Shown: positions 19,966 to 36,913 of the stretch, one piece after another
How positions within the stretch are numbered: the first letter of the stretch is position 1
Layout: each line of letters starts with the position of its first letter
Source of the DNA: an uncultured delta proteobacterium
Lineage (GTDB): Bacteria > Desulfobacterota > Syntrophia > Syntrophales > UBA2185
Direction of reading: 5' to 3'
Length of the DNA: 64,000 nt
Assembly (NCBI GenBank): GCA_963695875.1
Contig: CAVOID010000003.1
Span: 398,892-462,891 of the forward strand
Notes under the pieces: generated by a model
Told to the model about the DNA's origin: nothing
Seen by the model: only the letters and a program-made list of their open reading frames with translations
Databases searched by the model: none
Translations under genes and position numbers: made by a program

Positions 19966-20160
19966 CTCCTTGACCAGTGTACGTTGAAAATCATTTAATT
20001 ATACTCGACAACTCTTTCATTTTACAATTATATTGTTCCGTTTAGCAACAAAATTTTGCTGTTCGTGATATTTACCTGCCTCCTAAATTGCGGTTGTTAA
20101 ATAGTGACCCCGTATGATAAAGGGAGCATCATTTTAAATTTAATGATGCCTGGCTTTTTT

Positions 20161-20249
20161 GAAGCTATCCGCCCGCAGGGCGGGGCTGCCCGAAAACGAA
20201 GATATGCTTGCATTGTCCCCCTTATCCCCGCCTGTAAGGCGGGGCTTGC
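20161..20249. repeat. Dispersed ~90-bp two-hairpin element, copy 1
   Basis: Reverse complement aligns with 37184-37270; hairpins ccgcccgcagggcgg and ccccgcctgtaaggcgggg. Confidence 0.8.
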
Positions 20250-20277
20250 ACTGAGGATTATGCGTTAATTCCTCATA

Positions 20278-21081
20278 ATGGAATCCAGTATGCATGATAT
20301 ATTAGAAGTAATTCAGGTTCATATGCCGTTTGATTTTCTCTATAATAAATATCTCCCGATGGTTATTAAAGAGAGGATAAATCCTGAAATCAGCTTCAAT
20401 CATTATACTCTCGATCATTTCAAGAAGGAGGATTACACCAGAGTTGCCGATCGGCTCTTGGAGGCAGGTTTGATGATTACCTTCCATGCGCCCTTTATGG
20501 ATTTGAGACCCGGGGCCATAGATCCTGAGATAAGGCAGGTTACCATAGAGCGCCTGAAGCAGGTATTTGATCTCGTCCCTTATTTTCGGCCTCTTTCCGT
20601 AGTCTGTCACGCGTCGTTCGATAAGAGATACTATGTGTCGAGTGAGCAGACGTGGCTGAAAAACAGTATTGAAACGTGGCAGCAGTTGTTAACACAAGCC
20701 ATGGAGATGAAGACCATCATTGCTCTGGAAAATGTTTATGAAGGCGACTGTCAGCAATTGAGTCTTCTTCTTGATGCATTTCCTTCCCCTCATGTCTGTT
20801 TTTGCTTTGATACCGGCCATTTTAATGTCTTCTCCGAGACTCCTCTGGAAGAATGGATGATTAGTTTAGGATCACGCATCGGACAGATTCATATCCATGA
20901 CAATAACGGGCTCCTTGATGAACATCTCCCTGTAGGTGATGGTAACTTTCCCTTCCGGGACTTTTTCGGAATAATCCGTAAAAAGGGGATTAATCCCATT
21001 ATTACCGTTGAGTCTCATACGGAGAAACATCTGTGGCGTATGTTAGAAAATATTAAGGCTATGAAACTGTTCGTGCAATAG
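20278..21081 (+). CDS. Sugar phosphate isomerase/epimerase family (AP endonuclease 2 TIM barrel)
   Basis: HAPF.DL, ALENV, CFDTGH, HIHDN.G..DEHL..G.G. Confidence 0.85.
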
Positions 21082-21115
21082 GGATCAGAGGGAAGAGACA
21101 GGCAGGGAGTATAAT

Positions 21116-22090
21116 TTGATCAGATACATCGTCAAAAGATTGATATTCATGGTTCCCCTTCTTATTGGCATTACCATTGTCTGTTTTGTCGTTATGCACC
21201 TTGCCCCCGGCTCTCCCACCGACATGGAAACACAGATGAACCCCAGGGCATCCGCAGATTACCGGGAGCGTTTAATGGCGATGTACGACCTTGATAAACC
21301 TCTCCACCAGCAGTATTTATCCTGGGTCGGAAAAGTTGCCGTGCTGGATCTGGGAAAATCATTTTCCCCGGACCGCAGGCCGGTCACTGGCAAGATCATC
21401 GAAAGGCTTCCCATTACCATCCTCATAAATGTACTATCCATGATCCTGATTCTGGTTATTGCGATACCCCTCGGCGTACTTTCCGCCGTCTATCAGAATT
21501 CCCTGTTCGATAAGGCGGCCGGTGTTTTCGTATTCATCGGATTTGCCGTACCCACTTTCTGGCTGGCGCTACTTTTAATGATTTTCTTCGGGATCGACCT
21601 TGCCTGGCTTCCCATATCGGGTATCAGGTCCTTGAATTATGAATACCTTCCACCGGGGGCGGTCTTTCTGGATTTGATAAAGCATCTGATACTCCCCGTA
21701 ACGCTTTCGGCATTTGGCGGACTCGCAGGCCTGTCTCGGTATATGAGGTCCAATATGCTGGAGGTGATCAGGCAGGATTATATCATGACGGCTAGGGCGA
21801 AGGGTTTACGTGAGCGAACGGTCATCTATAAGCACGCCCTCAGGAACGCCCTGCTTCCTGTTATCACCATCCTGGGTTTGTCCGTGCCCGGTCTTATCGG
21901 AGGAAGTGTCATCTTCGAGACCATTTTCGCCATACCCGGTATGGGACAACTTTTTTACATGTCTGTCATGGCCAGGGATTATCCTGTCGTAATGGGAATT
22001 CTTTTCATAGGGGCGGTATTGACCCTGCTGGGGAATCTGATTGCCGATGTCTCCTATGCCCTGGCTGATCCGAGGATCAGGGTATCATAA
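21116..22090 (+). CDS. Peptide/nickel ABC transporter permease, DppB/OppB type
   Basis: YIVKRL, HLILP, R..MLEV..QDYI.TARAKGL, HALRNAL, DPRIR. Confidence 0.92.
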
Positions 22091-22101
22091 TGGTGTAAAG
22101 T

Positions 22102-22932
22102 GTGAGAACCGAGTTCTGGAAGAGATTTTCAAAAAACAAGATCGCCTTGGCCGGGAGCTGCGTTGTTATTCTGTTGTTTATAATTTCCATCCTCGCGCCA
22201 TGGCTTTCTCCTTACGATCCCAATCAGATTAATCTTAAGCTTGTACTATCGCCGCCTTCCGGCAGTCACCTGTTTGGGACGGATCAGCTGGGCCGGGATG
22301 TCCTGTCAAGGATGATCTGGGGGGCCAGGATATCACTGAAGGTGGGGTTTGTGGCTACGGGTATCGCCATCCTGATCGGGGCCGTTCTGGGCGCTGTAGC
22401 GGGGTATTACGGAAGGTGGATAGATGCTGTGATTATGAGGTTCGTGGATATAATGCTCTGCTTCCCGACATTCTTCCTCATTTTGGCTGTAATTGCAATC
22501 CTTGAACCATCTATCTGGAACATCATGATCATCATCGGCCTGACCGGTTGGATGGGGATCACGCGCCTTGTCCGTGCAGATTTCACATCCCTGAAAGAGA
22601 GGGATTTCGTGCTTGCAGCCAGGGCGATCGGCGCCGGCGATTTCCGGATTATCTTTATACATATTCTTCCTAACGCCATGGCATCCGTACTTGTTGCCGC
22701 GACACTGGGTGTTGCCGGTGCTATTCTCACGGAGTCCGCCCTCAGTTTTCTGGGTATCGGCGTTCAGCCTCCCACACCAAGCTGGGGGAATATTCTCACG
22801 GCTGGTAAGGATAACATCGATATCGCCTGGTGGCTTTCCTTCTATCCCGGTTTAGCCATCCTGATTACCGTCCTCGGGTACAATCTCCTGGGTGAAGGAA
22901 TACGGGATTCTCTGGATCCGAGACTCAGATGA
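22102..22932 (+). CDS. Peptide/nickel ABC transporter permease, DppC/OppC type
   Basis: FGTDQLGRDVLSR, HILPN, LSFLGIGVQPPTPSWG, GEGIRD.LDPR. Confidence 0.92.
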   Translation: MRTEFWKRFSKNKIALAGSCVVILLFIISILAPWLSPYDPNQINLKLVLSPPSGSHLFGTDQLGRDVLSRMIWGARISLKVGFVATGIAILIGAVLGAVAGYYGRWIDAVIMRFVDIMLCFPTFFLILAVIAILEPSIWNIMIIIGLTGWMGITRLVRADFTSLKERDFVLAARAIGAGDFRIIFIHILPNAMASVLVAATLGVAGAILTESALSFLGIGVQPPTPSWGNILTAGKDNIDIAWWLSFYPGLAILITVLGYNLLGEGIRDSLDPRLR

Positions 22933-22992
22933 GGGAATTTTCCGCGATATTATTTTCCGTTCAGCAAAAGGTGTTATTCTTTTCTCAGTCCA

Positions 22993-23844
22993 TTAAACCG
23001 CTTCCCAGCGCGCAATTGCCTCCACAGCCATGCAGCGACCCTGCTCATAACCTTCCTGAAGGATGACGCGATTATGGCTTAGTCGCGACACACGAAAGTT
23101 CTCGGGCGGACAAACTTCAACGATGGATACGCCGTCCGGCGGCTTGCGGATGAGCGCCACCGATTCGTTATAGTGCCGGACACGCTTCGCCATCGCCTGT
23201 TGCAGCATGGGGTAACGCCCCACGCGCCAGCGCATGAAGAAATCAAACAGTCCCTGACGCTTAACGTAGTCTAGACGCCGTGACCGAAGGACCATAATGC
23301 GGCTGGCCCCACGATAAATTGCCTCACCCACCGGTATTGCATCCGCTACCCCGCCATCTGTCGTCTGTCGTCCGTCGACCATCGGGTAATCCCTGTAAAA
23401 AAGCGGCATGGCGCTGGAAGCTTTAAGAACATGCTCAAGATCCCGGGAACTGGTTATCTTGTAGATTGCCTCGCCTGTTTGCGTATCGGTCAAGACAACT
23501 ATAAAGGGTTTGTTTTTGGCATAAATCTTCTGCAAGTCAAGACGGATTTCCCGGATGGTGATATTCCAGAGCCAGTCAAGGTCTATCAGATGACTGCCGC
23601 GAAAAAACCTGGTAAAACTGATAAACTCCGGCCGTAACGAATAGTCTATGTAGATACTGCTGTTGCGGCCGATCATTTCGGCAAGGTATGCCGCGAGGTT
23701 GGATGCACCCGAAGAAACCCCTATATAAAAATCAAAGGGATTGAATTGCGCTTCGAGAAAGCCGTCCATAACCCCTGTGGAGAAGACTCCTCGCAGCGCG
23801 CCTCCCTCTACGACCAACGCCGTATCTAATGGTTGATTTGACAA
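22993..23844 (-). CDS. Patatin family protein, YjjU-like
   Basis: VVEGGALRGVFSTGV, GVSSGA (GxSxG), DGG. Confidence 0.88.
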   Translation of the reverse strand: MSNQPLDTALVVEGGALRGVFSTGVMDGFLEAQFNPFDFYIGVSSGASNLAAYLAEMIGRNSSIYIDYSLRPEFISFTRFFRGSHLIDLDWLWNITIREIRLDLQKIYAKNKPFIVVLTDTQTGEAIYKITSSRDLEHVLKASSAMPLFYRDYPMVDGRQTTDGGVADAIPVGEAIYRGASRIMVLRSRRLDYVKRQGLFDFFMRWRVGRYPMLQQAMAKRVRHYNESVALIRKPPDGVSIVEVCPPENFRVSRLSHNRVILQEGYEQGRCMAVEAIARWEAV

Positions 23845-24013
23845 CGTTTCAAACCGAGAATTTCTATGGCTACTTCGTGGCGGTATTTATAAACCTCCCG
23901 AACCGGTCCAGGCCGAGGGAGTTAAAACCACCGTAACTCTTGCAGCAGCATCCGATGAACCGCACCGCAGTCTGGTCACGGCTATTAGCATGCCCATGCA
24001 GCAGGATTGAACC

Positions 24014-24964
24014 CTACTGGGCCTGATTGATGGCGGATAGCTGCCATCTGTTGTTTCCTGCGGGCCTGGTAAAAGTCCAGTATTCCTCGAATTTCACAGG
24101 CTCTGTTTTGCTTCCCGACAATAATTCGCCATTTTCGCTTACTGTGTAATCCAGAAGGCTGGCCAGGAATCTAACGGTAATAAAGTCAATGCCTCCTTCC
24201 TGCCATGCTTCGGTGATGTCCACGGATCTGACTGCAATGTTATCAAGTTTGTTGATCTTCTTTTCTGCTTTCAGTTTATCAGCATCCCTCTGAAAAATCC
24301 CGAACATCTCCTCTGTAAGAATATCTTTCACACTGGCCATGTCACGGTTGATCCACGCGCCCTGAATCTTGAAGAAATTATCCATGCAGAGATCGGAGAA
24401 TCTGGCTTTGTCAAAAGAGGAGTCCAATTGTCGAATATGGCTGATTCCTGTTTGAACGTCACTTTCAGTAAACCCCTGAGATTGAGAAGAAGGTGAATAT
24501 GGTGTCTGCCGTTCCATGGAGGGAGCTGTGCCTGTCTGATAATAAGTCCCGGCTGCAGATTCCGCCTGTTTCTTTCTTCTGAAATATGAATACAGGAAAT
24601 AAAGAAGACCACCAATGAGGATAATCTCTAAAAGCCCGATGCCGCTTCCGCCAAAACCGCCCATGCCCATACCACCGAAAAGCAGACTGCCCAGAAAGCC
24701 GCCCGCTACGCCCATGGCGAGACCTCTCCAAATGCTCGGCTGCTGTATCTGAGGACTCGTCGGTTGTGATGGAGGTGTCGTTTGGCGGGACGGGGATGAA
24801 GATGAGTAAGGACTGCTTGGTGAGCTGTATGAACGGGAACCCCGGCTGCCTGAAGATGTTCCCCCTCCTACCCTGGCAAAAACATCCAGTTCTGTTATCC
24901 ATATGAAAAGAAACATAAATGTAAAAAGTGTTATTCCTATTTTTGACCATTTTCCTGAAAACAT
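24014..24964 (-). CDS. Tim44 domain-containing protein
   Basis: ARVGGG.S.GSRGSRSYS, Gly-rich TM, FFKIQ.AW, EYWTF.R...W.LSAI.Q. Confidence 0.88.
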   Translation of the reverse strand: MFSGKWSKIGITLFTFMFLFIWITELDVFARVGGGTSSGSRGSRSYSSPSSPYSSSSPSRQTTPPSQPTSPQIQQPSIWRGLAMGVAGGFLGSLLFGGMGMGGFGGSGIGLLEIILIGGLLYFLYSYFRRKKQAESAAGTYYQTGTAPSMERQTPYSPSSQSQGFTESDVQTGISHIRQLDSSFDKARFSDLCMDNFFKIQGAWINRDMASVKDILTEEMFGIFQRDADKLKAEKKINKLDNIAVRSVDITEAWQEGGIDFITVRFLASLLDYTVSENGELLSGSKTEPVKFEEYWTFTRPAGNNRWQLSAINQAQ

Positions 24965-25226
24965 ATTTATTTCCTCCTTGCGGCGACTTGTCCCGTTCAC
25001 GCGAATCGATGGACTGGAAGATAATAACGGGACGATAGCGATCGTTTCGAATGGCGATTCTAAAAGATATATACTAAGGTGTCAACATCTGCTTTTCGTT
25101 TTGTTTTTTTTAAACAGATGGTGTATTAGAATCATCTGTCTTAATTTGGTGTGGGGGTTACTCTCGAAGCATCCTAATAATAACCCCTTCAATGGAACAT
25201 TTTACAAAAAAAATCCAGGAGCATTC

Positions 25227-26006
25227 ATGGGTATTGAGCAATTAGACGGAAAAATCGTTGCGGCGGCAGATATGATCGTACGTGCCAGGAGCATCGTGGT
25301 TTTTACAGGTGCCGGAATCAGTACCGAGTCCGGCATCCCTGATTTTCGCAGCCCCGGTGGGATATGGACCAAATTCGATCCGGAAGATTTTACCATCCAG
25401 AAGTTCCTGTCGAGTCCGGAAACCAGGAAAAAACAGTGGAACATCCTACTTGAAGGGGGCCTTATAACAGATGCCAAACCGAACAGGGCTCATCATGCTG
25501 TTGCCGAATTGGAGCAAATGGGCAAGTTGACCTGTGTTGTTACACAGAATATCGATAACCTCCATCAAAAGGCCGGCAACTCTCCGGATAAGGTATATGA
25601 ACTGCACGGCAACATGAGGTACCTAAGATGCATAGACTGCGACGCGCGCTATCCGGTTGGTGAAATAGTGGAAAGATACCGTTTGAAGGATGATGTTCCT
25701 GATTGTGAACTCTGCCATGGGATTTTAAAGCCCGATGTGGTTTTCTTTGGAGAAATGCTCCCTCAAGCGACGCTGAAAAGTGCGACTTTTCACGCAACCA
25801 GGTGCGATCTTATCATTGTCGTCGGCTCGTCTCTGGTCGTCTACCCGGCGGCCTCGATCCCGTTGTATGCCAAAGAGTCAGGGGCCAAACTGGTGATTAT
25901 CAATAATACGCCTACACCCTGCGACGACATCGCCGATGTTATCATCAATCATTCGGCCGGTGAGGTCATGGAAAAGCTACTGGAAGAAGTCAAGAAGAGT
26001 CTGTAG
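25227..26006 (+). CDS. NAD-dependent protein deacylase, Sir2/CobB family
   Basis: FTGAGISTESGIPDFR, TQNIDNLH, ELHG, two CxxC, KPDVVFFGE, GSSLVVYPA; SD AGGAG before ATG 25227. Confidence 0.95.
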   Translation: MGIEQLDGKIVAAADMIVRARSIVVFTGAGISTESGIPDFRSPGGIWTKFDPEDFTIQKFLSSPETRKKQWNILLEGGLITDAKPNRAHHAVAELEQMGKLTCVVTQNIDNLHQKAGNSPDKVYELHGNMRYLRCIDCDARYPVGEIVERYRLKDDVPDCELCHGILKPDVVFFGEMLPQATLKSATFHATRCDLIIVVGSSLVVYPAASIPLYAKESGAKLVIINNTPTPCDDIADVIINHSAGEVMEKLLEEVKKSL

Positions 26007-26032
26007 ACTAAAAAGATGCCCTGGGAATTAGT

Positions 26033-26569
26033 ATGCCGAGCGTGCAAGTAACAGAGACGGAAAGGTTGAAATTGGTCCCTCTTGACTTTGAGAGCATGAA
26101 TCCTGACGACCATCCGAAAATTGAGCAGAGACTGGGCCTGCAACTGGCCAGTATGATCTTAGGTGAACAGATCGACAGGGAGATCAAAGCAGCCATGAGA
26201 GCCTCTCTGGAGAATGTCATAAGAGATAAAAAGCAGGACCAATGGTATGCTGACTGGCAGAGCGTTCTGATTATACTGAAGGAAGAGAATGCAATCATAG
26301 GAGGATTCTGTTTCCAGAGATATCCTGATAAACATGGCTCAGTTCAAATCGGTTATATGATCCGACCCGAGTATCAGAGAAACGGATACATGACGGAGGC
26401 GCTGAAGCAGGGAATTTCATGGATATTTGAACGTCCCGACATATTATCCCTGCTCGCGCAAACAACGAAGTCCAACCTACCGTCTCACAGGGTTCTGGAA
26501 AAGATAGGCATGACAGTGTATGAAGAAACGGCGAAAAGCCTCTGGTGGAAGATCGAGAAATGTGCCTGA
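26033..26569 (+). CDS. GNAT N-acetyltransferase, RimJ/RimL-like
   Basis: ETERLKL, IGY.I.PEYQRNGYMTEA, N.PS.RVLEK.G. Confidence 0.88.
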   Translation: MPSVQVTETERLKLVPLDFESMNPDDHPKIEQRLGLQLASMILGEQIDREIKAAMRASLENVIRDKKQDQWYADWQSVLIILKEENAIIGGFCFQRYPDKHGSVQIGYMIRPEYQRNGYMTEALKQGISWIFERPDILSLLAQTTKSNLPSHRVLEKIGMTVYEETAKSLWWKIEKCA

Positions 26570-27330
26570 TCCTTTTATCCTACAGGATGCATGACAGGTA
26601 TCCCTTTATCCTTGCAGCAAATCGGGATGAGTTTTACGCAAGGCCATCGGCAGCGGTATCTTTATGGAATGATGCGCCGGGTGTGATTGCGGGCAAGGAC
26701 CTGCAGAGAGGAGGCACATGGCTGGGAATTACGAAAACGGGGCGTCTCGCCATGCTTACCAACTACCGTGAACGGACCCCTTTTGGGCAAAATGCGCCTT
26801 CACGGGGATGGCTGGTGAGAAATTTCCTCTGCGGTCAGGAGGAGCCAAAAACTTATCTTGAAAAGATGGAAGTTGAAAAGGCTGAATATAACGGTTTCAG
26901 TCTGATTCTGGGAGATATGCATCATCTGCACTACATATCGAACCGGGGGGACACGTTGGAATTATCGCCGGGTCTATACGGTCTGAGCAACCGGCTTCTC
27001 GATACGCCCTGGCCTAAGATTAAGCGTGGGAAAGAAGCCTTCGGATCATTACTTTCCAAGTCAGACAATCCCCTTCCGGAAGATATCTTCCGCATTCTAT
27101 CAGATCGATCAAAGCCGAGCGATGAAGAACTTCCCGACACAGGAGTCGGACTGGAATGGGAGCGGATTCTTTCTTCCATATTTATAACGAGCCCCAGCTA
27201 TGGCACGCGCTCCTCTTCGGTTATTATGATTGACAGGAGAAACCACGTCATGTTTATAGAGAGAGTATTTGATAACCATCCTGATCCATGGATGGAGGCA
27301 AAATTTGAATTCAGGATTCATGAGAAATAG
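26560..27330 (+). CDS. NRDE family protein (TANGO2-like)
   Basis: MCLI..AANRDEFYARP, GGTWLG, SRG.LV, LSN..LDTPWPK, YGTRSS. Confidence 0.93.
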   Translation: MCLILLSYRMHDRYPFILAANRDEFYARPSAAVSLWNDAPGVIAGKDLQRGGTWLGITKTGRLAMLTNYRERTPFGQNAPSRGWLVRNFLCGQEEPKTYLEKMEVEKAEYNGFSLILGDMHHLHYISNRGDTLELSPGLYGLSNRLLDTPWPKIKRGKEAFGSLLSKSDNPLPEDIFRILSDRSKPSDEELPDTGVGLEWERILSSIFITSPSYGTRSSSVIMIDRRNHVMFIERVFDNHPDPWMEAKFEFRIHEK

Positions 27331-27344
27331 AGAGTGCAGACAGC

Positions 27345-27776
27345 ATGTCCAGGCGTGAATATCCCGACGGTCCGATTTGCGGCGTGGGGGCGGTGGTGAT
27401 CAACGAGGGAAAGGTACTTCTGGTAAAGCGGGGCGTCGATCCTAATAGAGGACTATGGGCCATTCCCGGCGGCTCTTTAAAATTGGGCGAAACCCTGCAA
27501 GAAGGAGCCGAACGGGAGATATTGGAAGAAACAGGCATAACCATCAAGGCAAAGGAGCCCGTTTACTCTTTCGATTTTTTTGAGGTAGATGGAAAGGGGC
27601 GGGTTCGTTTTCACTACGTGGTTATTGACTTGATGGCCGATTATATTTGTGGTGAGGTACAGGGCGCTGACGACGCCCTGGAGGCCAGATGGGTGTCTCC
27701 AGAGGAGCTCAAAGACATGCAAGTATCCAAGAATACCCTGAAGATTCTGGATTTCCTGAGGGTTTTTTCTGACTAA
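27345..27776 (+). CDS. Nudix hydrolase, ADP-ribose pyrophosphatase-like
   Basis: Nudix box GGSLKLGETLQEGAEREILEETGI; REYP..P..GVGAV. Confidence 0.9.
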   Translation: MSRREYPDGPICGVGAVVINEGKVLLVKRGVDPNRGLWAIPGGSLKLGETLQEGAEREILEETGITIKAKEPVYSFDFFEVDGKGRVRFHYVVIDLMADYICGEVQGADDALEARWVSPEELKDMQVSKNTLKILDFLRVFSD

Positions 27777-27813
27777 CCTGATAGGTACTGACTTAGATCG
27801 AGGAGGTATAACG

Positions 27814-28560
27814 ATGAAAGTTATTTATCACAAGGATTTCAACCAGTCGTACTGTTCCGATCCCGCTGCTGCGCCTGGACGGATAGAAGCCGTTTACAAA
27901 GCCATCCGTGACAAGGTGACCTTTATAGATGCGATACCTGCAAAGAAAGAAGATATAGCTGCCGTCCATACGCCGTATCACATAGAGAGGGTCAATAGCG
28001 ATGGTATTTACCAGATTGCCGCGCTGGCCGCCGGGGGTGCTGTGCAGGCTGCCGAGATTGGTTTGAAGGAGCCTTGTTTTGCCCTTATACGGCCGCCCGG
28101 ACACCATGCATCAGCCGGAAGCGCATGGGGTTTCTGCTATTTTAATAATATGGCCATAGCACTTGAAAAGTTAAAACGGGGAAACCGGATTAAAAAGGCT
28201 TTTGTTCTGGATTTCGATCTGCACTTCGGGGATGGGACGGTTAATCTTCTTGAAGGCAGCGGTTACGTGTCCATATATAATCCTTCAGCATCTTACCCTG
28301 AAGAATATTTGAAAAGTATAGAGAGCCGTCTCTTTTCAGAAAAGGTTGATATTATAGGTGTCTCTGCCGGCTTTGATAACCATGCGGAAGATTGGGGAGG
28401 GCTTCTCTCCACCGCGGATTACAAAGAGATGGGAAGAATGGTCAGGGAAGCCAGTAATAAGAACGGGGGAGGGTGTTTTGCCATCCTGGAAGGTGGTTAT
28501 AATCACAGTGTACTGGGACAGAACGTGATGGCCTTCATTGAAGGGATGGAGAAATCTTAA
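27814..28560 (+). CDS. Zn-dependent histone deacetylase family protein
   Basis: RPPGHHA, GFCYFNN, DFDLHFGDGT, SAGFD, LEGGY. Confidence 0.93.
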   Translation: MKVIYHKDFNQSYCSDPAAAPGRIEAVYKAIRDKVTFIDAIPAKKEDIAAVHTPYHIERVNSDGIYQIAALAAGGAVQAAEIGLKEPCFALIRPPGHHASAGSAWGFCYFNNMAIALEKLKRGNRIKKAFVLDFDLHFGDGTVNLLEGSGYVSIYNPSASYPEEYLKSIESRLFSEKVDIIGVSAGFDNHAEDWGGLLSTADYKEMGRMVREASNKNGGGCFAILEGGYNHSVLGQNVMAFIEGMEKS

Positions 28561-28594
28561 AAGTAAAAGCAAATCTGCATTGCAGAACAGTTTC

Positions 28595-29973
28595 CTACTT
28601 GCCGATGCAGAAGGTTGAGAATATCCTGTCCAGTACTTCTTCAGTAACTGTTTTTCCCGCGATTTCACCGAGACTCGCAAGAGCCTCCCGTACATCGAAG
28701 GCGGAAAATTCGGGTGAAAGACCGTTGATCATGCTTTCCCTCGCCTTTGAAAGCAGGTCTGCTGTTTTTTCGATGGCTATTTTATGGCGGATGTTGGAGA
28801 CGATATGTGTCGGGTGCCAATCGTCCGTTTGGTTTAAAACAAGCGCGTGGATAGCATCTCTCAATTCAGGTATGCCCTCACCGTATTTTGCGGAGATCCA
28901 TATTGGGGGGTTCACATCAGGTGCAAGTGAGGTCAATTCCCGCTCGTCAAGCGTGTGAGGGAGATCGGCCTTATTGATAACAAGGAGGAATTTATTTGCT
29001 TGACTCCTCGTGATGATTTCCTTATCTTCTTTTGTCAGTGCTTCACTGCCGTCGAGTACAATTATAACCACATCCGCCTGTGAAAGTTTTTCCCATACCA
29101 AATGTAATGCCTTCTTTTTCGATGATATTTTCCGGCTCTCTTATTCCGGCTGTATCGGTGAGTTTTACGGGCACTCCCCTGATGCTGATAATTTCCTCGA
29201 TAAAATCCCTCGTCGTTCCAGGTATGGCGGTTACAATGGCTCGTTTTTCACCAAGAAGCCTGTTTAACAGACTTGACTTACCCACATTTGGCCTTCCTGC
29301 TATTACGGTGCTAATGCCATCCCTGTATATTTTCCCTTCCCGGTATGTCGAGGCAAGTTCATACAGCTCGTCGACAATTGTCCCGGTAACGTCGGCAATT
29401 TCGGAGGGACTGGCCGGGCTCTACGTCTTCATCGGAAAAATCAATGGATGTCTCAAGGAGGGCAAGTATATCAATGATCGATGCGCGGATCGTCTCAATT
29501 TTCTCGGTTAAGTTACCTTTGAGGTGGGAAACAGCCAGTTCGAGCCCCCGGTCTGTTTTCGCCATGATCATGTCAGCGACCGCCTCTGCCTGAGAAAGGT
29601 CGATTCGGTTGTTAAGAAAGGCACGTCTGGTGAATTCTCCGGGTTCCGCAAGACGGGCGCCTGCTTTAATGACTTCGGCAAGCACGGACTGCAGAATGAC
29701 AGAACCGCCATGGCAGTTAATCTCAAGTACGTCTTCACCCGTATAGGTGTGAGGTTTCTCCATGAGAGAGATGAGAACTTCATCAATGATTGTACCTGTT
29801 TCAGGCGAAATGATGTCTCCATGATAGAGCTGATGGCTTTTGAAGCCGTCAGCCTTTTTTGATGATCTAAAGAGGAGGCGGGCGATATCCCTGGCCTTCG
29901 GGCCGCTAATCCGTATTATGCCGATTCCTCCCACGCCGGGAGGTGTGGCTATGGCCGCTATAGTGTCTTCCAA
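28595..29973 (-). CDS. mnmE: tRNA modification GTPase, frameshifted
   Basis: [58 protein letters not shown]. Confidence 0.95.
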
Positions 29974-30014
29974 ACTTGATGGCCTCGTTACAAAGTCAGA
30001 AATTGGGTGGAAAA

Positions 30015-30177
30015 AGACGGCGAAGTGAAACGCGTAAGTTTCAGTGGGTGTCCTTCGACAGGCTCAGGGTAAACTCATCTTGCAAATAAGGTATTCAGAG
30101 ATGTACACTACACGGACTGCCTGGACATACCATCGCAGGTGTAAATTCCGGCTAGGGGACTTTTGATAACGCTGTCA
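30015..30177. repeat. Degenerate inverted-repeat element containing the REP-like unit ccttcgacaggctcagggt
   Basis: Ends gacggcg... / ...cgctgtc; REP-like unit at 30052-30070 recurs inverted at 60281-60300. Confidence 0.5.
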
Positions 30178-30915
30178 AACCCGTCCCTTTTTGACCGGCA
30201 TGATAACAATTTTTCTGAATTCACCTTCGCCCCGGCTTTTTGTGGTCAGCGATTCGTCGTTTTGCAGGGCCAGATGGATGATGCGGCGGTCATGAGCGTT
30301 CATGTGTCCGACAGTTAATGCTTTCTTTGATTTTTTCACTTTTTCTGCCAGATTTGCTGCCAGCGCGATGAGCGATTCTTCCCTTCTTCTTCTATACCCT
30401 TCCGTATCTACAACGATCATTTTCCGGTTATCTGCATACTTACTTACGGCCTTGTTCACAATGTACTGAATAGCATCTAAGTTCTGTCCCCTCTTTCCGA
30501 TAAGTAAACCACTGCCGTCTCCCTTGATATTGAGGATGATCGTATCAGGCGTTTCTTCAATGGTCACGGGACAATCGAGGCTCATCCTGCCCAGGATACC
30601 CTCCAGTATTCTTTTCGCCCTCGTGGCTGGGGTCTCAGCTGATTCTTCCGTTACTACAGATTGATTGAAATCTGAACTGACGGGTGGCTTTTTTGGAGCA
30701 TCTTTTCGAGATTGCTCGTGTGGTGTATCTATCGTCATATCGATGGACATTATGCTTGCCCTAATTTTTGCTTTTTTTGACCCAAGGCCGAGGAATCCCG
30801 ATGCGCCGTCCGAAATGATTTCTATATTAAGCTTTTCCCTTGGAACGTCAAATTCGCTGCAGGCCTTCTCTATGGCCTCATCTATTGTTTTTCCTTCAAT
30901 TTCCAAAGACTCCAT
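30175..30915 (-). CDS. jag: RNA-binding protein Jag/EloR (KH plus R3H)
   Basis: GKTIDEAI, LIGKRGQNLDAIQY, RRIIH..L. Confidence 0.93.
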   Translation of the reverse strand: MESLEIEGKTIDEAIEKACSEFDVPREKLNIEIISDGASGFLGLGSKKAKIRASIMSIDMTIDTPHEQSRKDAPKKPPVSSDFNQSVVTEESAETPATRAKRILEGILGRMSLDCPVTIEETPDTIILNIKGDGSGLLIGKRGQNLDAIQYIVNKAVSKYADNRKMIVVDTEGYRRRREESLIALAANLAEKVKKSKKALTVGHMNAHDRRIIHLALQNDESLTTKSRGEGEFRKIVIMPVKKGRV

Positions 30916-30936
30916 AGCTCTTACCTCAACTTATTG

Positions 30937-32547
30937 TCATCGCTTGTTAATGTAGTACTGCTGCCCGATGCTCAGGATATTTTGAAAGAGCCAGTAAATA
31001 ACAAGACCTGACGGAAAATTTATAAAAAGAAACGTAAAAACAACAGGCATGAGCATCATTAACTTTGCCTGCATGGGATCACCCATAGGGGGACTCATCT
31101 TTTGCTGTATGACCATGGTTGCCCCCATGATAATTGGCGTAATGTAGTAAGGGTCTTTTGCTGACAGATCCTGTATCCACCAGTAAAATGGGGCATGGCG
31201 AAGTTCAATAGAATACATAAGAGCCTTGTATAGACCAAAGAAGACGGGAATCTGAATAACCATTGGCAGACATCCACCCAGGGGGTTTACCTTATGCGTT
31301 TTGTACAGTGCCATTGTTTCCTGGCTCAGCTTGGTCTTGTCGTTTTTGTACTTCTCCCGAAGCTCGGCTATCTTCGGCTGAAGCTTCTGCATCTCCTTCA
31401 TGGATTTGTAGCTCTTATTTCCCAGGGGCCAGAAGATAATCTTTATCAGGATGGTGAGGATGATAATGGCAATGCCGTAGTTGGAGACGTAGTTATTGAG
31501 GAATTTAATGGAGATCAAAAGGGGCATGGCCAGCCACTTCATCCATGAACCGAAATCAATGGCGTTCTCAAGACCGACTCCCTGGGCCTTGAGAAGGTCA
31601 TATTCTTTCGGTCCAAGGTACAATGAATAGCTGAATGACCCGACCTGACCGGGGGGAATAATGTTTTGCGGGCCCTTGAGATCAACGAAAACCATGTTTC
31701 GAGCGTCAACGGACAGGGAAAGGCTTGTCAGCGTCGGGTTCTGCGGTATCATGGAGGCGATAAAATATTTGCTTTCGAACCCGGCCCAGGCTACATCGGG
31801 ACCGAGCAATTTTACGGAATCAAGTTTCTTGACCTCGTAGCGGTCGACTTCATTTGCAATGAAAGAAACGGGTCCTTCATGGCCGTAACTGTCTGTTTCA
31901 GCCTTCGGATCAACGTACTGATCCCAGGAGAGAAGTGCATTCTGATTCAGGGTTACCTTTGATAGGTTGTGCACCTTCACTTCCAAATCAAAGGCATACT
32001 TTCCCGGATAGAAGGTAAAGATTTTTTCTACTTTTATCTCGTTAGGATATGTCTGTGTGAAGATAAGTCTGCGGCTGTCCGGGCCTTGTGTCAAATCAAG
32101 CAGGCTGCTATCTGCCGTGAATATGCTGTCAGGACGGATATCAATATTTGATTCGGGGAAGGTGCTGGTGAGAGGTCTTTGCATACCGTCCATAACATGG
32201 ACGAGTTCTATAGGTTCAGCGTTTGATGTCGAGAGCAGAACGGTAATATTTCAGTTTGTAAGATTTCAGGGTGCCGCCTTTTGTACTGAAGATTGCAGTA
32301 TAAAGGGGTGTTTCTACGGGAATGTCCTTCTCAGGTCGCCGCAACCTTTTGAGACAGGACGGTCCTGGATAGAGCCGGCTTTACCTGTTGCTGGGCTACT
32401 TCTTTTCCGGCCGGTTTTACTTCGGTCGCCGTCTCTTGTTGTACAGACTCTGGCTGTTTGGGGGGTGGTTTTTTTGCAAAAAATAGCCTGCCAGGTGAAA
32501 ATAACGATCAGTGACAGGACTATGGCAAGGACGGTCTTCTTGTCCAT
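30937..32547 (-). CDS. yidC: Membrane protein insertase YidC, frameshifted near the N-terminus
   Basis: MDKKTVLAIVLS, YLGPK, NYGIAII.LT, NPLGGCLP...QIPVF, PSGLVIYW. Confidence 0.95.
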
Positions 32548-32577
32548 TCAATACCTCCGCGCTTTTGCGCTTTAATT

Positions 32578-32802
32578 TTATTTAACTGGATCGTAACCGC
32601 CGGGATAAAAAGGGTGGCACCGAAACAGCCGCATCAGGCCGTAATACGAACCTCTAATCGGTCCGTATCGCCGGATTGCATTTATCGCATATTCGGAGCA
32701 AGATGGGAAAAAGCGGCAACATGGAGTAAAAAGAGGGGATATACATATCTGGTAGACACGAACAAAAATAACAAGAATTTTCCCCAGAATTTGCATAAAC
32801 AT
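32578..32802 (-). CDS. yidD: Membrane protein insertion efficiency factor
   Basis: YQ..ISP...CRF.PSCSEY, RCHPF.PGG.DPV. Confidence 0.93.
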   Translation of the reverse strand: MFMQILGKILVIFVRVYQICISPLFTPCCRFFPSCSEYAINAIRRYGPIRGSYYGLMRLFRCHPFYPGGYDPVK

Positions 32803-32805
32803 AAA

Positions 32806-33153
32806 TCAGGCATCTGGATTTTTGATTAAATGACTTTCCAACTCACTGCAAATATCTTGATATTTCAGTAACGATGCATCTTTTTTTGCAATGATCACGA
32901 TGTCTTGTGGAGTTGAAAGCCTTGATCTGTTTAATCTAAAATACTCTCTAATGAGACGTTTGATTCTGTTTCTTTGAACAGCGTTCCCCACCTTTTTACT
33001 GACCGTTATTCCCAGTCTGCTGATCCCCGTTTGATTCTTGCATGCGATAATGGTGAAATGTTCAGAATAACTTCGCACCCCCTGCTGATAGACGGTCAAA
33101 TAATCTCTTCTTTTACGAATTCTTACATGCTTGCCAAAGGATTGTTTTTCCAT
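32806..33153 (-). CDS. rnpA: Ribonuclease P protein component
   Basis: RLGITVSKKVGNAVQRNRIKR..RE. Confidence 0.95.
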   Translation of the reverse strand: MEKQSFGKHVRIRKRRDYLTVYQQGVRSYSEHFTIIACKNQTGISRLGITVSKKVGNAVQRNRIKRLIREYFRLNRSRLSTPQDIVIIAKKDASLLKYQDICSELESHLIKNPDA

Positions 33154-33169
33154 GGACCGCTTTTTCAGG

Positions 33170-33307
33170 TTAAACGGCCAACCTCTTTCTGCCCTTAGCA
33201 CGTCTGCGACTCAGGACCAGTCTACCCCCCCTGGTGGACATTCTCACAAGAAATCCGTGGGTTCGTTTCCTCTTCGTGTTGCTGAAATTTGTCAGGTTCT
33301 TTTTCAT
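33170..33307 (-). CDS. rpmH: 50S ribosomal protein L34 (absent from the ORF track)
   Basis: Manual translation [45 protein letters not shown]; atypical N-terminus may reflect compensating indels. Confidence 0.93.
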
Positions 33308-33666
33308 TAACTGTACCCCGTGAAAATAATAAGGTATTCCATTAACCATAACCGAATTTGTTTGTCAAGATTAAATTGGCAAAGTTGACGTGGCAAGGTA
33401 AGTATTGATATGGTTCTGATAAAGAGACTTATTTCAAGCTGAAATAAATAAAAGCCGCGGCTCATGAGGGTTTTGCCTAGGATGTTGCTTTAGAGCCTTG
33501 CAGGATCGAATCCCGCAACATCACTGTTCTGAAAGTTACGGGCAGCCTTCCACAAGAAGAAGAGGGGCGAGGATTTCTATTAATAACGGGCATTGCATAA
33601 AGTCCGACGTGGGAAACGAGCAAGGATGAGCCCCGGGAGAGTTCATGCAAGAGAAATTAACGGGTA

Positions 33667-34050
33667 TGTGAATAAAGCTGTTGATAACTATGTTGATGAT
33701 TATTGAAAACCTTCAATTATTGGTGATTTTAAGCTCTTTGCATAAATTCTAGGCAGGAAAATTAATCAATTATTCCAGTAATATGTAAAATTCGTGACTG
33801 ACACTAGTGTCTTGATATGGATTTTTTGAAAGTTATAAACTCCTATGCGAAAGATGTACCATTTATTATTTCCGTTACAAGTATATTTTCTGAAAATAAG
33901 AAAATTTTGTAAATGCAATTTGACAGTTATTTTTTGCAAACCCTGACAGGTCAAACTAAAAATAGGCTTCTTACTGTAACAAAGCATGCAGCAATTTTTG
34001 GAGGGCAGACTTCCATTCAAAACGCTAATCCTTATTGACTGTTATCCACA
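33667..34050. other. Putative oriC / DnaA-box region
   Basis: TGTGAATAA 33667, TGTTGATAA 33679, TGTTGATGA 33691 (12-bp period), perfect TTATCCACA 34042; AT-rich spacer; upstream of rpmH. Confidence 0.6.
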
Positions 34051-34270
34051 AATTTTCGATTTCGATTAACATGCAGGACTCTTAATGGTAATAATTAGAG
34101 GTAGCGCCTGGAATACATCTAGCATCACAGGTGTACCTGCATTGAGAAATAAAAAAATCGCAGAATTCTAACTTAGAATGTGGTACATGTTCCAGGGTGA
34201 GGTCCGTAAGCGCAACCGGACTGGGTCCTGCGATCGTCAGACATATTATAAACGCAAACGGAGGGCGTAT

Positions 34271-34825
34271 ATGGATAAAAAACAAAGCAGGCGATGGGAT
34301 CGTCTTTACTTTTTCTTTGCCTGCATCATAATAACACCAATTCCAATATGTGGGTGCGGTCACTTTTATGAGGGATTTCTGGCCAGGCCGGCCTTCACAG
34401 AAGCGAATGATTTTTTGAGTCAGGGCAACTACAAGGCCTCTCTGAGCAAATATGAGCAGATTATTGTACGATACCCCACGGCGGGCGACAGGGTTCTTTT
34501 CGAGATGGGTGTTATTTATGCGTATCCCAGGAATCAGCAGAAAGATTATCAGAAATCTCTGGAATGTTTCCAGAAACTGATAAAGGATTACCCGAGGAGC
34601 GAGTACAGGCAGGACAGCGAAGTGATGATATCTCTTATCAAAGAGGTCACCAGGAAGATATCTCTTACCAATGAGGTCACCAGCAAGGATAGGAGGATTA
34701 TTACACAGCAAAAACAGATTGAGTCGCTCGAACGGCAGGTGGGGGAACTCGAAAAGAAAATAGAACAGATGAAAGAAGTTGATATGAATTTGAAAGAAAA
34801 GAAGAAATCAGTTCCTGAGAGATAA
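34271..34825 (+). CDS. TPR-containing lipoprotein with coiled-coil C-terminus, QseG/YfhG-like
   Basis: Lipobox-like ICGC, LFEMGVIYAYP.N..KDYQKS..CF..L.KDYP.S.Y, EQMKEVD. Confidence 0.65.
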   Translation: MDKKQSRRWDRLYFFFACIIITPIPICGCGHFYEGFLARPAFTEANDFLSQGNYKASLSKYEQIIVRYPTAGDRVLFEMGVIYAYPRNQQKDYQKSLECFQKLIKDYPRSEYRQDSEVMISLIKEVTRKISLTNEVTSKDRRIITQQKQIESLERQVGELEKKIEQMKEVDMNLKEKKKSVPER

Positions 34826-35337
34826 TGAGGTCAGTGATGGAAAAGCTTTTAATCGTCGATGACGATTTGAGTATTTTAAGAGTGCTTAAGATGAGATTAG
34901 AATCCGAGGGCTATCAGGTTGAAGCTGCTTCGGAAATTGAAGCAGCAAAGGATCTGGCCGTAAGAAATGAGTATGGGCTCGCTATTTTTGATCTGAAGCT
35001 TCCCGGTGGAAATGGTATAGATCTGATGAAGAGTATCCATGAAACGGATCCTGATCTTCCTGTTATTATCCTGACGGCATACGGGACCATTGAAAGTGAG
35101 GTCGAAGCAATGAAAGAGGGCGCTTATATATATTTGAAGAAGCCCTTTAATTATCGTGAGCTTCTTTTTCAGATCAGGAATGGCATTGAGAAGGCAAACC
35201 TTAAAGGGAGGTCAAGAAACTAAAGAGTATTTCAAGGCAAAATATTACTCAGGATATCATTGGGCGGAGTAAAGTGATGAAGAGGGTCCTTGATTTGACG
35301 CTCCTTGCAGCGGAGACAGTGGAACACGGAAAGTGAG
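34825..35337 (+). pseudogene. Truncated sigma54-type (NtrC/GlrR-like) response regulator; receiver domain largely intact
   Basis: LIVDDD, DLKLP, LTAYG, KPF; after a frameshift IIGRSKVMKRVL..AAET, then a garbled Walker A remnant and stop. Confidence 0.7.
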
Positions 35338-35574
35338 CGTGATAATGTTCAGGTGCGAAGAATTGAAGTTCATTTTGCGTGGTAATCATCACTGTTTGCA
35401 TCGATGTGCGATACAGAGTGATAGGTGAAAACAATTAAAAAAAGCTCCGTATCTATCGTATACCTAATAAGACGGAAAAAGGGTTAACGCCCCGTTGATC
35501 TTAAGTTCTGTCTATCTAATTCTATAGGTCTATAGGCGTCATTTAAAATAACCTGTGCCTCCAAGAGGGATAGA

Positions 35575-36913
35575 ATGGTCCAAAAAACAAAGATTAGACG
35601 CAGAATCATTTCTTCAATATCTAATCGTGGTCTTCTGGCCATCCTCGTCTCGGTTTTATTCGTCGCACTCATATCGATTATAATCGCCTATCATTTCAAG
35701 GCTCCTGACAATTTAATTATGACCACCGGATTTGAAAGTGGGTCTTATGCAATTTTTGGTGAGCGCTACCGGCAGATCCTGGCGCGTGAGAATATTCATC
35801 TTAAGTTGCTTCCCTCCTCAGGTTCTGTAGAAAATCTCAAGCGTCTTAACGATAAATCCTACCAGGTCGATGCCGGTTTTGTCCAAGATGGAACGAGTTC
35901 GCCCTCAGAGGCGAATAATCTCGTTTCCCTCGGAGCCATAGGCTACTGCACCTCTTTGGGTTTTTTATCGAAGCCAAGAGACGTTTAACTACCTATCCGA
36001 ACTCAAAGGGAAGAGAATTGCGATCGGACCGGAGGGGAGCGGCGTGCGCAAATTTGCCATCGATTTGCTTAAACTAAATAATAGTGCAGCTCCACCAACC
36101 GTGCTGCTCGACCTTTCCAGTGCTGCTGCCAATAAAGCTTTATTGGAAGGGACGGTAGATGCGGTAATGATAATCGGTGCAGAGGATAATGCCCTCGTTA
36201 AGGAACTTTTGTATGCCCCCAAGGTGAAGTTGCTGAGTTTCAGGCAAGCTGAGGCTTATACCCGGCTTATCCCTGCTTTATCGCATGTTGTGTTACCCCA
36301 AGGCATACTGGATGTTTCAAAGAAAATGCCCTCCCAAGATGTTCATCTTTTGGCAGTGACAACAAGTCTCATTGTACGTAAAGACCTGCACCCTGCTTTA
36401 GTATATTTGCTTCTGGACGCTGCCGTTGAGATTCACAGCAACGCAGGCTGGGTGAATAAGAAGGGGGAATTCCCCTCGCCAAAGGAGCTGAGCTTCCCTT
36501 CCTCCAATTATGCGGAGAGATTTTATAAATCGGGACGGCCTTTTTTGCTTGACTATCTTCCATTTGGAATAGCTGCGTTTGTTGACCGCACGATTTTAAT
36601 TATGGTCCCGGTAGCCATAATCCTGATCCCTTTAATCCGAAGCATACCCTGGCTGTACTCTTGGCGGCACCGTCGGAAATTCTATCACTGGTACAGAGAA
36701 CTTAAGAATCTGGAATTAGAAGTGATGGAAAGTCCCGAACCAGAAAATATATCGGGTTATCATGAAAAGATTGACCGGATCGAGGCATCGATCAATAGAA
36801 TCCCCGTGCCTTTGGCTTTTTTTGACGAGGTCTATAAGCTTCAAGAGCATGTTGATTTGGTTCGGGGGAAACTTATTAGATTAAGCAATCAGTCTAAGGA
36901 GGTCAATCCGTAG
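35575..36913 (+). CDS. TAXI family TRAP solute-binding protein with C-terminal TM extension; one frameshift near 35950
   Basis: TG..SGSY, SSGSVENL, FVQDG, IAIGPEGSG, LHPALVYLL, YLPF, L.PL...P.LY.W. Confidence 0.82.

Follow-up and report, generated by a model that had tools for sequence, protein, structure and literature searches.

A sirtuin-NRDE/TANGO2-Nudix-deacetylase gene row conserved in Syntrophales suggests a likely role for the NRDE protein in acyl removal

Introduction

Loss of TANGO2 leads to a severe metabolic disorder in which vitamin B5 may be of benefit, and the reaction of the protein is disputed: heme carrier, acyl-CoA binder and N-terminal nucleophile (Ntn) hydrolase have all been put forward. 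What, then, does a bacterial NRDE/TANGO2 protein do when it is encoded among deacylases? The question is raised by a row of five genes in an uncultured delta proteobacterium of the order Syntrophales (UBA2185; assembly GCA_963695875.1, contig CAVOID010000003.1, forward-strand positions 398,892 to 462,891). We analysed this stretch of 64,000 nucleotides, hereafter the window, in which a sirtuin, a GNAT acetyltransferase, an NRDE/TANGO2 protein, a Nudix hydrolase and a short Zn-dependent deacetylase of the histone deacetylase (HDAC) type follow one another. A first-pass annotation had read the row as a protein-acylation control operon made of a writer, two erasers and a clean-up enzyme.

The conserved core of this row across Syntrophales is sirtuin-NRDE/TANGO2-Nudix-short HDAC. 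The position of NRDE within it suggests that the protein likely helps to strip acyl groups, a link limited to Syntrophales. We give an even chance to an operon for acyl removal and clean-up, in which an acetyl-type HDAC and a sirtuin would be joined by a Nudix hydrolase likely directed at ADP-ribose, and in which NRDE would likely be a third acyl hydrolase using a Cys nucleophile.

Results

The gene row is conserved across Syntrophales

The five open reading frames (ORFs) of the row lie on the + strand (Table 1), separated by 26, -10, 14 and 37 nt, and are flanked by a Tim44-like gene that diverges from the row and by mnmE, which converges on it. Each scored above its Pfam cut-off, for SIR2, Acetyltransf_3, TANGO2, NUDIX and Hist_deacetyl in row order. 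ORF positions and Pfam matches confirmed the co-orientation, gaps and borders described in the first-pass annotation; the sirtuin, Nudix and HDAC catalytic motifs that it had called intact proved to be so and are conserved among orthologs. The genome carries the sirtuin family at 4 loci, HDAC at 2, Nudix at 5, GNAT at 10 and NRDE at 1. With so few copies, a random meeting of the row genes is very unlikely, at about 1e-6 according to a hand estimate that assumed some 2,700 genes and was made on a row chosen after the fact. The gene row reflects one ancestral event.

The sirtuin was recovered in all of the 40 relatives searched, the short HDAC in 37, and Nudix and NRDE in 35 each. Within the same family, all five genes stood in order in 18/21 genomes; one further row was cut by contig ends, and two lacked NRDE, the remaining genes having closed up. 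Among the 19 genomes of other families, the four core genes formed a row in 7, at least three were together in 13 and at least two in 17, and two genomes had none together. The sirtuin immediately preceded NRDE in 14/16 genomes of these families, NRDE was beside Nudix in 11/11 and Nudix beside HDAC in 8/12. At the level of the class (150 genomes, 52 of them from one family), 121 of the 129 genomes holding both had the sirtuin immediately ahead of NRDE, and NRDE lay within 1 kb of HDAC in 67/116 and within 3.5 kb in 83/116; these counts cover the listed matches and exclude the genome of the window itself, five rows with weaker paralogs of the sirtuin, seven rows that were not listed and two additional NRDE fragments, and some misses fall at contig ends.

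Gaps along the row were mostly below 60 nt across genomes and often overlapping, and in several families the -10 overlap found in the window occurs at a junction where NRDE follows the sirtuin itself. Where NRDE has been lost (G006, G010, G026), the sirtuin, Nudix and HDAC genes close up; where Nudix has been lost (G028, G031, G032), NRDE joins HDAC. One Syntrophus genome, S. buswellii, contains only a divergent NRDE elsewhere in the genome, and a search of the other Syntrophus genome detected no NRDE.

A promoter-like pattern precedes the sirtuin in 31/72 upstream regions, as compared to 32/3600 shuffled sequences (0.9%), the pattern having been fitted to the same upstream sequences in which it was counted. 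It occurred in 18/21 regions of rows with GNAT and in 13/51 of rows without. A consensus promoter scan did not pick up this conserved + strand element upstream of the sirtuin, and an Rfam search of window positions 20000-36000 returned no match. Order-wide adjacency, tight spacing and the shared upstream motif make it very likely that the row is an operon, as the first-pass annotation had proposed.

Table 1. Features of the gene row, in window coordinates
Feature	Position	Strand	Remarks
Promoter-like element, heading the row	25101..25129	+	TTG, 17 nt, then a TG-preceded -10-like hexamer; putative function
Sirtuin, 259 aa	25227..26006	+	Pfam SIR2; NF001753 above cut-off; putative ortholog of S. 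aciditrophicus SYN_01020
RimJ/RimL-type GNAT, 178 aa	26033..26569	+	Accessory insertion in one family; Pfam, PDB relatives
NRDE/TANGO2 protein, 256 aa	26560..27330	+	N-terminal Cys2; 10-nt overlap with the end of the preceding gene
Nudix hydrolase, 143 aa	27345..27776	+	NadM-Nudix ADP-ribose pyrophosphatase domains as top PDB matches
Minimal Zn-dependent deacetylase, 248 aa	27814..28560	+	RPPGHH and EGGY; Pfam, motifs, model fold

The NRDE protein retains the proposed active site of TANGO2

Analysis of the NRDE sequence revealed Cys2, the NRDE motif at residues 21-24 and a PF05742 score above cut-off, which place the protein in the NRDE/TANGO2 family. Cys2, N21, R22, D23, E24, N68, K153 and R217 were invariant in 67/67 NRDE orthologs. 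The protein matched human TANGO2 and Shewanella HtpA over its full length (E 6e-45 to PDB 9bwa and 8sv7), with Cys2 and the motif retained. Unlike the window protein, these homologs had no sirtuin or deacylase context that could be found in the open-access literature, nor did this literature yield TANGO2/NRDE with a sirtuin, Nudix or deacetylase in one arrangement.

A study of human TANGO2 describes an active site like that of Cys Ntn amidases and acyltransferases, and structural relatives that hydrolyse or transfer N-acyl groups (PMC13044924). The residues proposed to form this Ntn site are retained in the window NRDE, for which a Cys Ntn activity, itself only proposed in TANGO2, may be considered. 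In TANGO2, NRDE has also been reported to mediate binding to the acyl moiety of acyl-CoA (PMC11867700). A broader proposal is that NRDE/TANGO2 proteins form a third, Cys-nucleophile class of deacylases that would act downstream of or beside sirtuins, with acyl-lysine, O-acyl-ADP-ribose or acyl-ribose-phosphate as substrates and the acyl group either set free or returned to CoA; we regard this generalisation as improbable.

Two deacylase families and a Nudix hydrolase of putative NadM type accompany NRDE

The short HDAC has RPPGHH, GFC, D133/D135/H137, D188 and EGGY, so that the double His, the Asp-His-Asp Zn ligands and the catalytic Tyr of classical Zn deacylases are all present. A confident model (pLDDT, predicted local distance difference test, 89) has the arginase-deacetylase fold and is 55-130 residues shorter than solved relatives; two stretches of about 30 residues each are absent, one in the L2 region and the other behind the Zn-binding strand. 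Cluster 1 bacterial deacetylases (HdaH, Kdac1, PDB 5ji5) share this fold (template modelling (TM) score 0.86-0.89 over the query) along with RPPGHH and EGGY, but are 305-377 aa long, as against 248 aa in the window protein with its two deleted regions. AcuC (cluster 2c) differs in having GGLHH and GGGY. The short HDAC is found in 129/151 genomes of the class, as a minimal 248-aa family without a close solved structure. RPP and EGGY have been described as marks of acetyl-only deacylases (PMC11532494), and RPPGHH and EGGY lead us to predict an acetyl preference for the window enzyme.

The same RPP and EGGY motifs also occur in polyamine deacetylases, and one stand-alone HDAC adjoins a spermidine synthase gene (L179). 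The row could serve the turnover of small-molecule amides, GNAT acetylating polyamines or similar compounds, the Zn enzyme deacetylating them, and NRDE carrying heme or lipids without any tie to the sirtuin. Heme binding has indeed been reported for HtpA (PMC10470608); however, a heme role for NRDE is contested (PMC12782551; PMC13044924), and the HDAC has no extended L2 loop for polyamine specificity and carries WGG in the place of the PEG/PIS motif, which sets it apart from acetylpolyamine amidohydrolases (cluster 4/HDAC10). The absence of these hallmarks supports the first-pass reading of the enzyme as an eraser of lysine acylation, and we consider turnover of small-molecule amides very unlikely.

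The sirtuin displays the GAGIS, DFR, QNID and HG motifs and two CxxC pairs, and its NAD-binding and catalytic motifs, Zn-binding cysteines and hidden Markov model (HMM) score assign it to Sir2. Its nearest solved relatives are Sir2Af2 and Sir2Tm. A longer, 367-aa version starting at ATG 24903 was rejected; it overlaps the start of the opposite-strand Tim44 gene, and orthologs start at the position of 25227. Compared by eye, the window protein closely resembles the printed segments of S. aciditrophicus SYN_01020, of which it appears to be an ortholog, and the sirtuin of the S. buswellii locus L170 agrees with the same segments almost letter for letter. Unlike in the window, NRDE is not adjacent to the sirtuin in the Syntrophus loci seen. 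Arg67 and Trp71 are invariant in the substrate-side helix of the sirtuin (window 25227-26006), and the RxxxW signature is also visible in SYN_00042, an active paralog. RxxxW is a candidate basis for the unexplained acyl selectivity seen in the absence of YxxR.

The Nudix box is complete (G43...E49...R57 E58 E61 E62). The best PDB matches were NadM-Nudix ADP-ribose pyrophosphatase domains, with MutT-like and NudJ matches close behind; scores fell well short of the NCBIfam cut-offs, set for the fused protein. The R...P..G.W..PGG, FD, H and DDA features are common to the window protein and to NadM-Nudix (PDB 2qjo, 2qjt), in which the domain is fused whereas the window Nudix stands alone. This class has been described as ADP-ribose pyrophosphatase (PMC5389931), and the window enzyme is likely of ADP-ribose type, the PDB match being suggestive only.

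The GNAT is a family-restricted insertion

In Pat and PatZ, by definition, the GNAT is joined to a domain resembling NDP-forming acyl-CoA synthetases, and Pat/CobB pairs an acetyltransferase with a sirtuin eraser. The window GNAT is a single domain and lies outside the Pat/PatZ definition. In Bacillus acuABC-acsA, an acetyltransferase and an HDAC-type eraser are encoded together, as in the window row (PMC11532494). Unlike both known systems, the row has no adjacent acyl-CoA synthetase as a target, its GNAT is RimJ/RimL-like and family-restricted, and it combines two eraser classes with NRDE and Nudix. It does not qualify as an acuABC-type write/erase operon, the GNAT being found in one family and no synthetase adjoining it in the window.

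A write/erase switch, in which GNAT would acylate target enzymes on lysine residues, to be deacylated again by the sirtuin and HDAC, agrees with the strong conservation of GNAT (21/21 genomes of its own family) and with its overlap with the NRDE start. In addition, no GNAT match fell at a Pat-type ATP-grasp locus in this 83%-complete assembly, so that a single-domain writer is possible. Against the switch, the window GNAT query remained unmatched in 19/19 genomes of other families that keep other row genes, and its relatives in the PDB are GNATs of the RimJ/RimL type or with small substrates. We judge the switch highly improbable. The 'writer' of the first-pass annotation was not borne out, since GNAT is an insertion limited to one family and resembles RimJ/RimL-type enzymes.

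The row is conserved at the level of ordinary operons and has a single origin

Background conservation was estimated from 400 kb of each of two distant Syntrophales genomes, adjacency being checked in the window's genome with aligned ends. Several observations made here and elsewhere weigh against a joint acyl-removal pathway. Tight co-oriented background pairs were kept at 11/17 and 25/31 (36/48), and opposite-strand neighbours in 1/11; the 14/16 of sirtuin-NRDE did not differ from 36/48 (p = 0.49). The row pairs are therefore at the ordinary operon level, with sirtuin-NRDE at the top of it. Unrelated genes are inserted inside the row at some loci, and three Syntrophus loci carry an opposite-strand response regulator in the NRDE slot. 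Outside the order, a sirtuin was present upstream at 1/39 NRDE loci of the same phylum, and the 1.5-kb flanks of 21 Bacillota NRDE loci contained no sirtuin and no HDAC. All 44 linked HDACs fall on one side of a single branch (Shimodaira-Hasegawa-like approximate likelihood ratio test (SH-aLRT) 92, not starred). A macrodomain is the usual O-acetyl-ADP-ribose deacylase, and one is encoded elsewhere in 37/41 genomes, so that NRDE is not needed for plain O-acetyl-ADP-ribose; the idea that NRDE stands in for an absent macrodomain was rejected on this ground. In published assays with acyl-insulin, reproducible activity was not seen for SYN_01020 but was seen for its paralog SYN_00042, which took off glutaryl, butyryl and succinyl groups but not acetyl (PMC8942843). 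In Shewanella, a conserved gene at a distance of 63 bp is not co-transcribed with the TANGO2 homolog (PMC10470608).

The single sirtuin case outside the order is not independent, because its NRDE groups with that of a Syntrophales family (100/97). None of the 39 same-phylum loci had a row-type Nudix or HDAC, and Pfam scans of 57/106 flanking ORFs gave no common theme. NRDE was detected in 21/301 Bacillota genomes, with Nudix at one locus and GNAT at two (40/44 flanking ORFs scanned). An independent linkage of NRDE with a sirtuin or HDAC was sought and not found in the 39 same-phylum loci, the 1.5-kb flanks of the 21 Bacillota loci and three records of a plasmid collection. Among the 80 closest short-HDAC loci, 43 had a partner gene and 37 were alone with mixed neighbours (52/106 ORFs scanned). 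Three Bacillota HDACs branch within a group of Smithella records, suggesting that the HDAC gene alone was transferred. The linkage of the row genes has one evolutionary origin. The co-occurrence of NRDE with Sir2, HDAC and Nudix genes, for which the first-pass annotation had proposed a neighbourhood survey, was seen within the order; outside it, NRDE had no consistent neighbours.

These data bear on another explanation, a loose housekeeping operon in which four small hydrolases met once near rpmH-yidC-mnmE and have kept a constitutive promoter in common without a joint pathway. It would fit the background-level conservation of the row, its tolerance of insertions, the heterogeneous neighbours of NRDE and short HDACs elsewhere, the Bacillota HDACs that nest among Smithella records yet lack row neighbours, and the G038 and G040 genomes, in which the three remaining genes are all scattered. 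However, it leaves the meeting of an ADP-ribose-type Nudix with two unrelated families of deacylases unaccounted for; the sirtuin-NRDE pair (121/129) is steadier than NRDE-HDAC (83/116 within 3.5 kb), and flanking genes such as tim44 vary. We consider a housekeeping operon rather unlikely. As for the first-pass reading of a protein-acylation operon, both eraser families and a Nudix with a NadM-type ADP-ribose pyrophosphatase as best PDB match proved real; its writer lacks support, the conservation equals operon background and the SYN_01020 result was negative.

Neighbouring genes and other observations

The Tim44-like gene has a strong sigma-70-like promoter match (11/12; window 25085-25057, - strand), back to back with the + strand element of Table 1. 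On the other side, mnmE (window 28595-29973, - strand) is broken into three frames in this assembly, and yidC (window 30937-32547, - strand) looks split as well. Genuine inactivation of mnmE was rejected: 32/151 conserved genes of the assembly have split frames likewise, so assembly indels are the likely cause. Judged by eye, the genes inserted in the row encode an exported-looking protein with EF-hand-like repeats (L109:4213-4989, L112:4249-4989) and a TrpF-like protein (L058:5787-6514). A 290-aa GNAT closely precedes NRDE at two Bacillota loci (L244:591-1460, L261:583-1455), with a RACo ASKHA gene on the downstream side. A divergent NRDE subgroup of the phylum lies directly downstream of dnaJ (L089, L092, L096, L102).

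Discussion

We propose that the row removes acyl groups and clears the products, in a scheme of which we infer every substrate. Reactive acyl-CoA intermediates would acylate lysines; S. aciditrophicus carries seven acyl-lysine types (PMC8942843). The minimal Zn enzyme, with its RPP and EGGY motifs, would take off acetyl groups, and the sirtuin would take off other acyl groups with NAD+, giving O-acyl-ADP-ribose. Nudix could then split O-acyl-ADP-ribose or free ADP-ribose into AMP and (acyl)ribose-5-phosphate. The third hydrolase, independent of cofactors, would be NRDE, with Cys2 as the nucleophile that may attack larger acyl amides or thioesters, for example free acyl-lysine, acyl-CoA or S-acyl adducts. 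The GNAT would be a later passenger in one family rather than the core writer.

The row differs from known acylation-control operons and provides a testable clue to TANGO2 function. The clue has one evolutionary origin, and is therefore a lead and not a proof. That NRDE is kept among deacylases yields a short list of substrates, which can be assayed with small bacterial proteins. If NRDE/TANGO2 did form a third deacylase class, this Syntrophales operon would reveal the reaction missing in human TANGO2 deficiency. For the syntrophs themselves, whose proteins are heavily acylated, the row may explain how the removal of acyl groups is divided.

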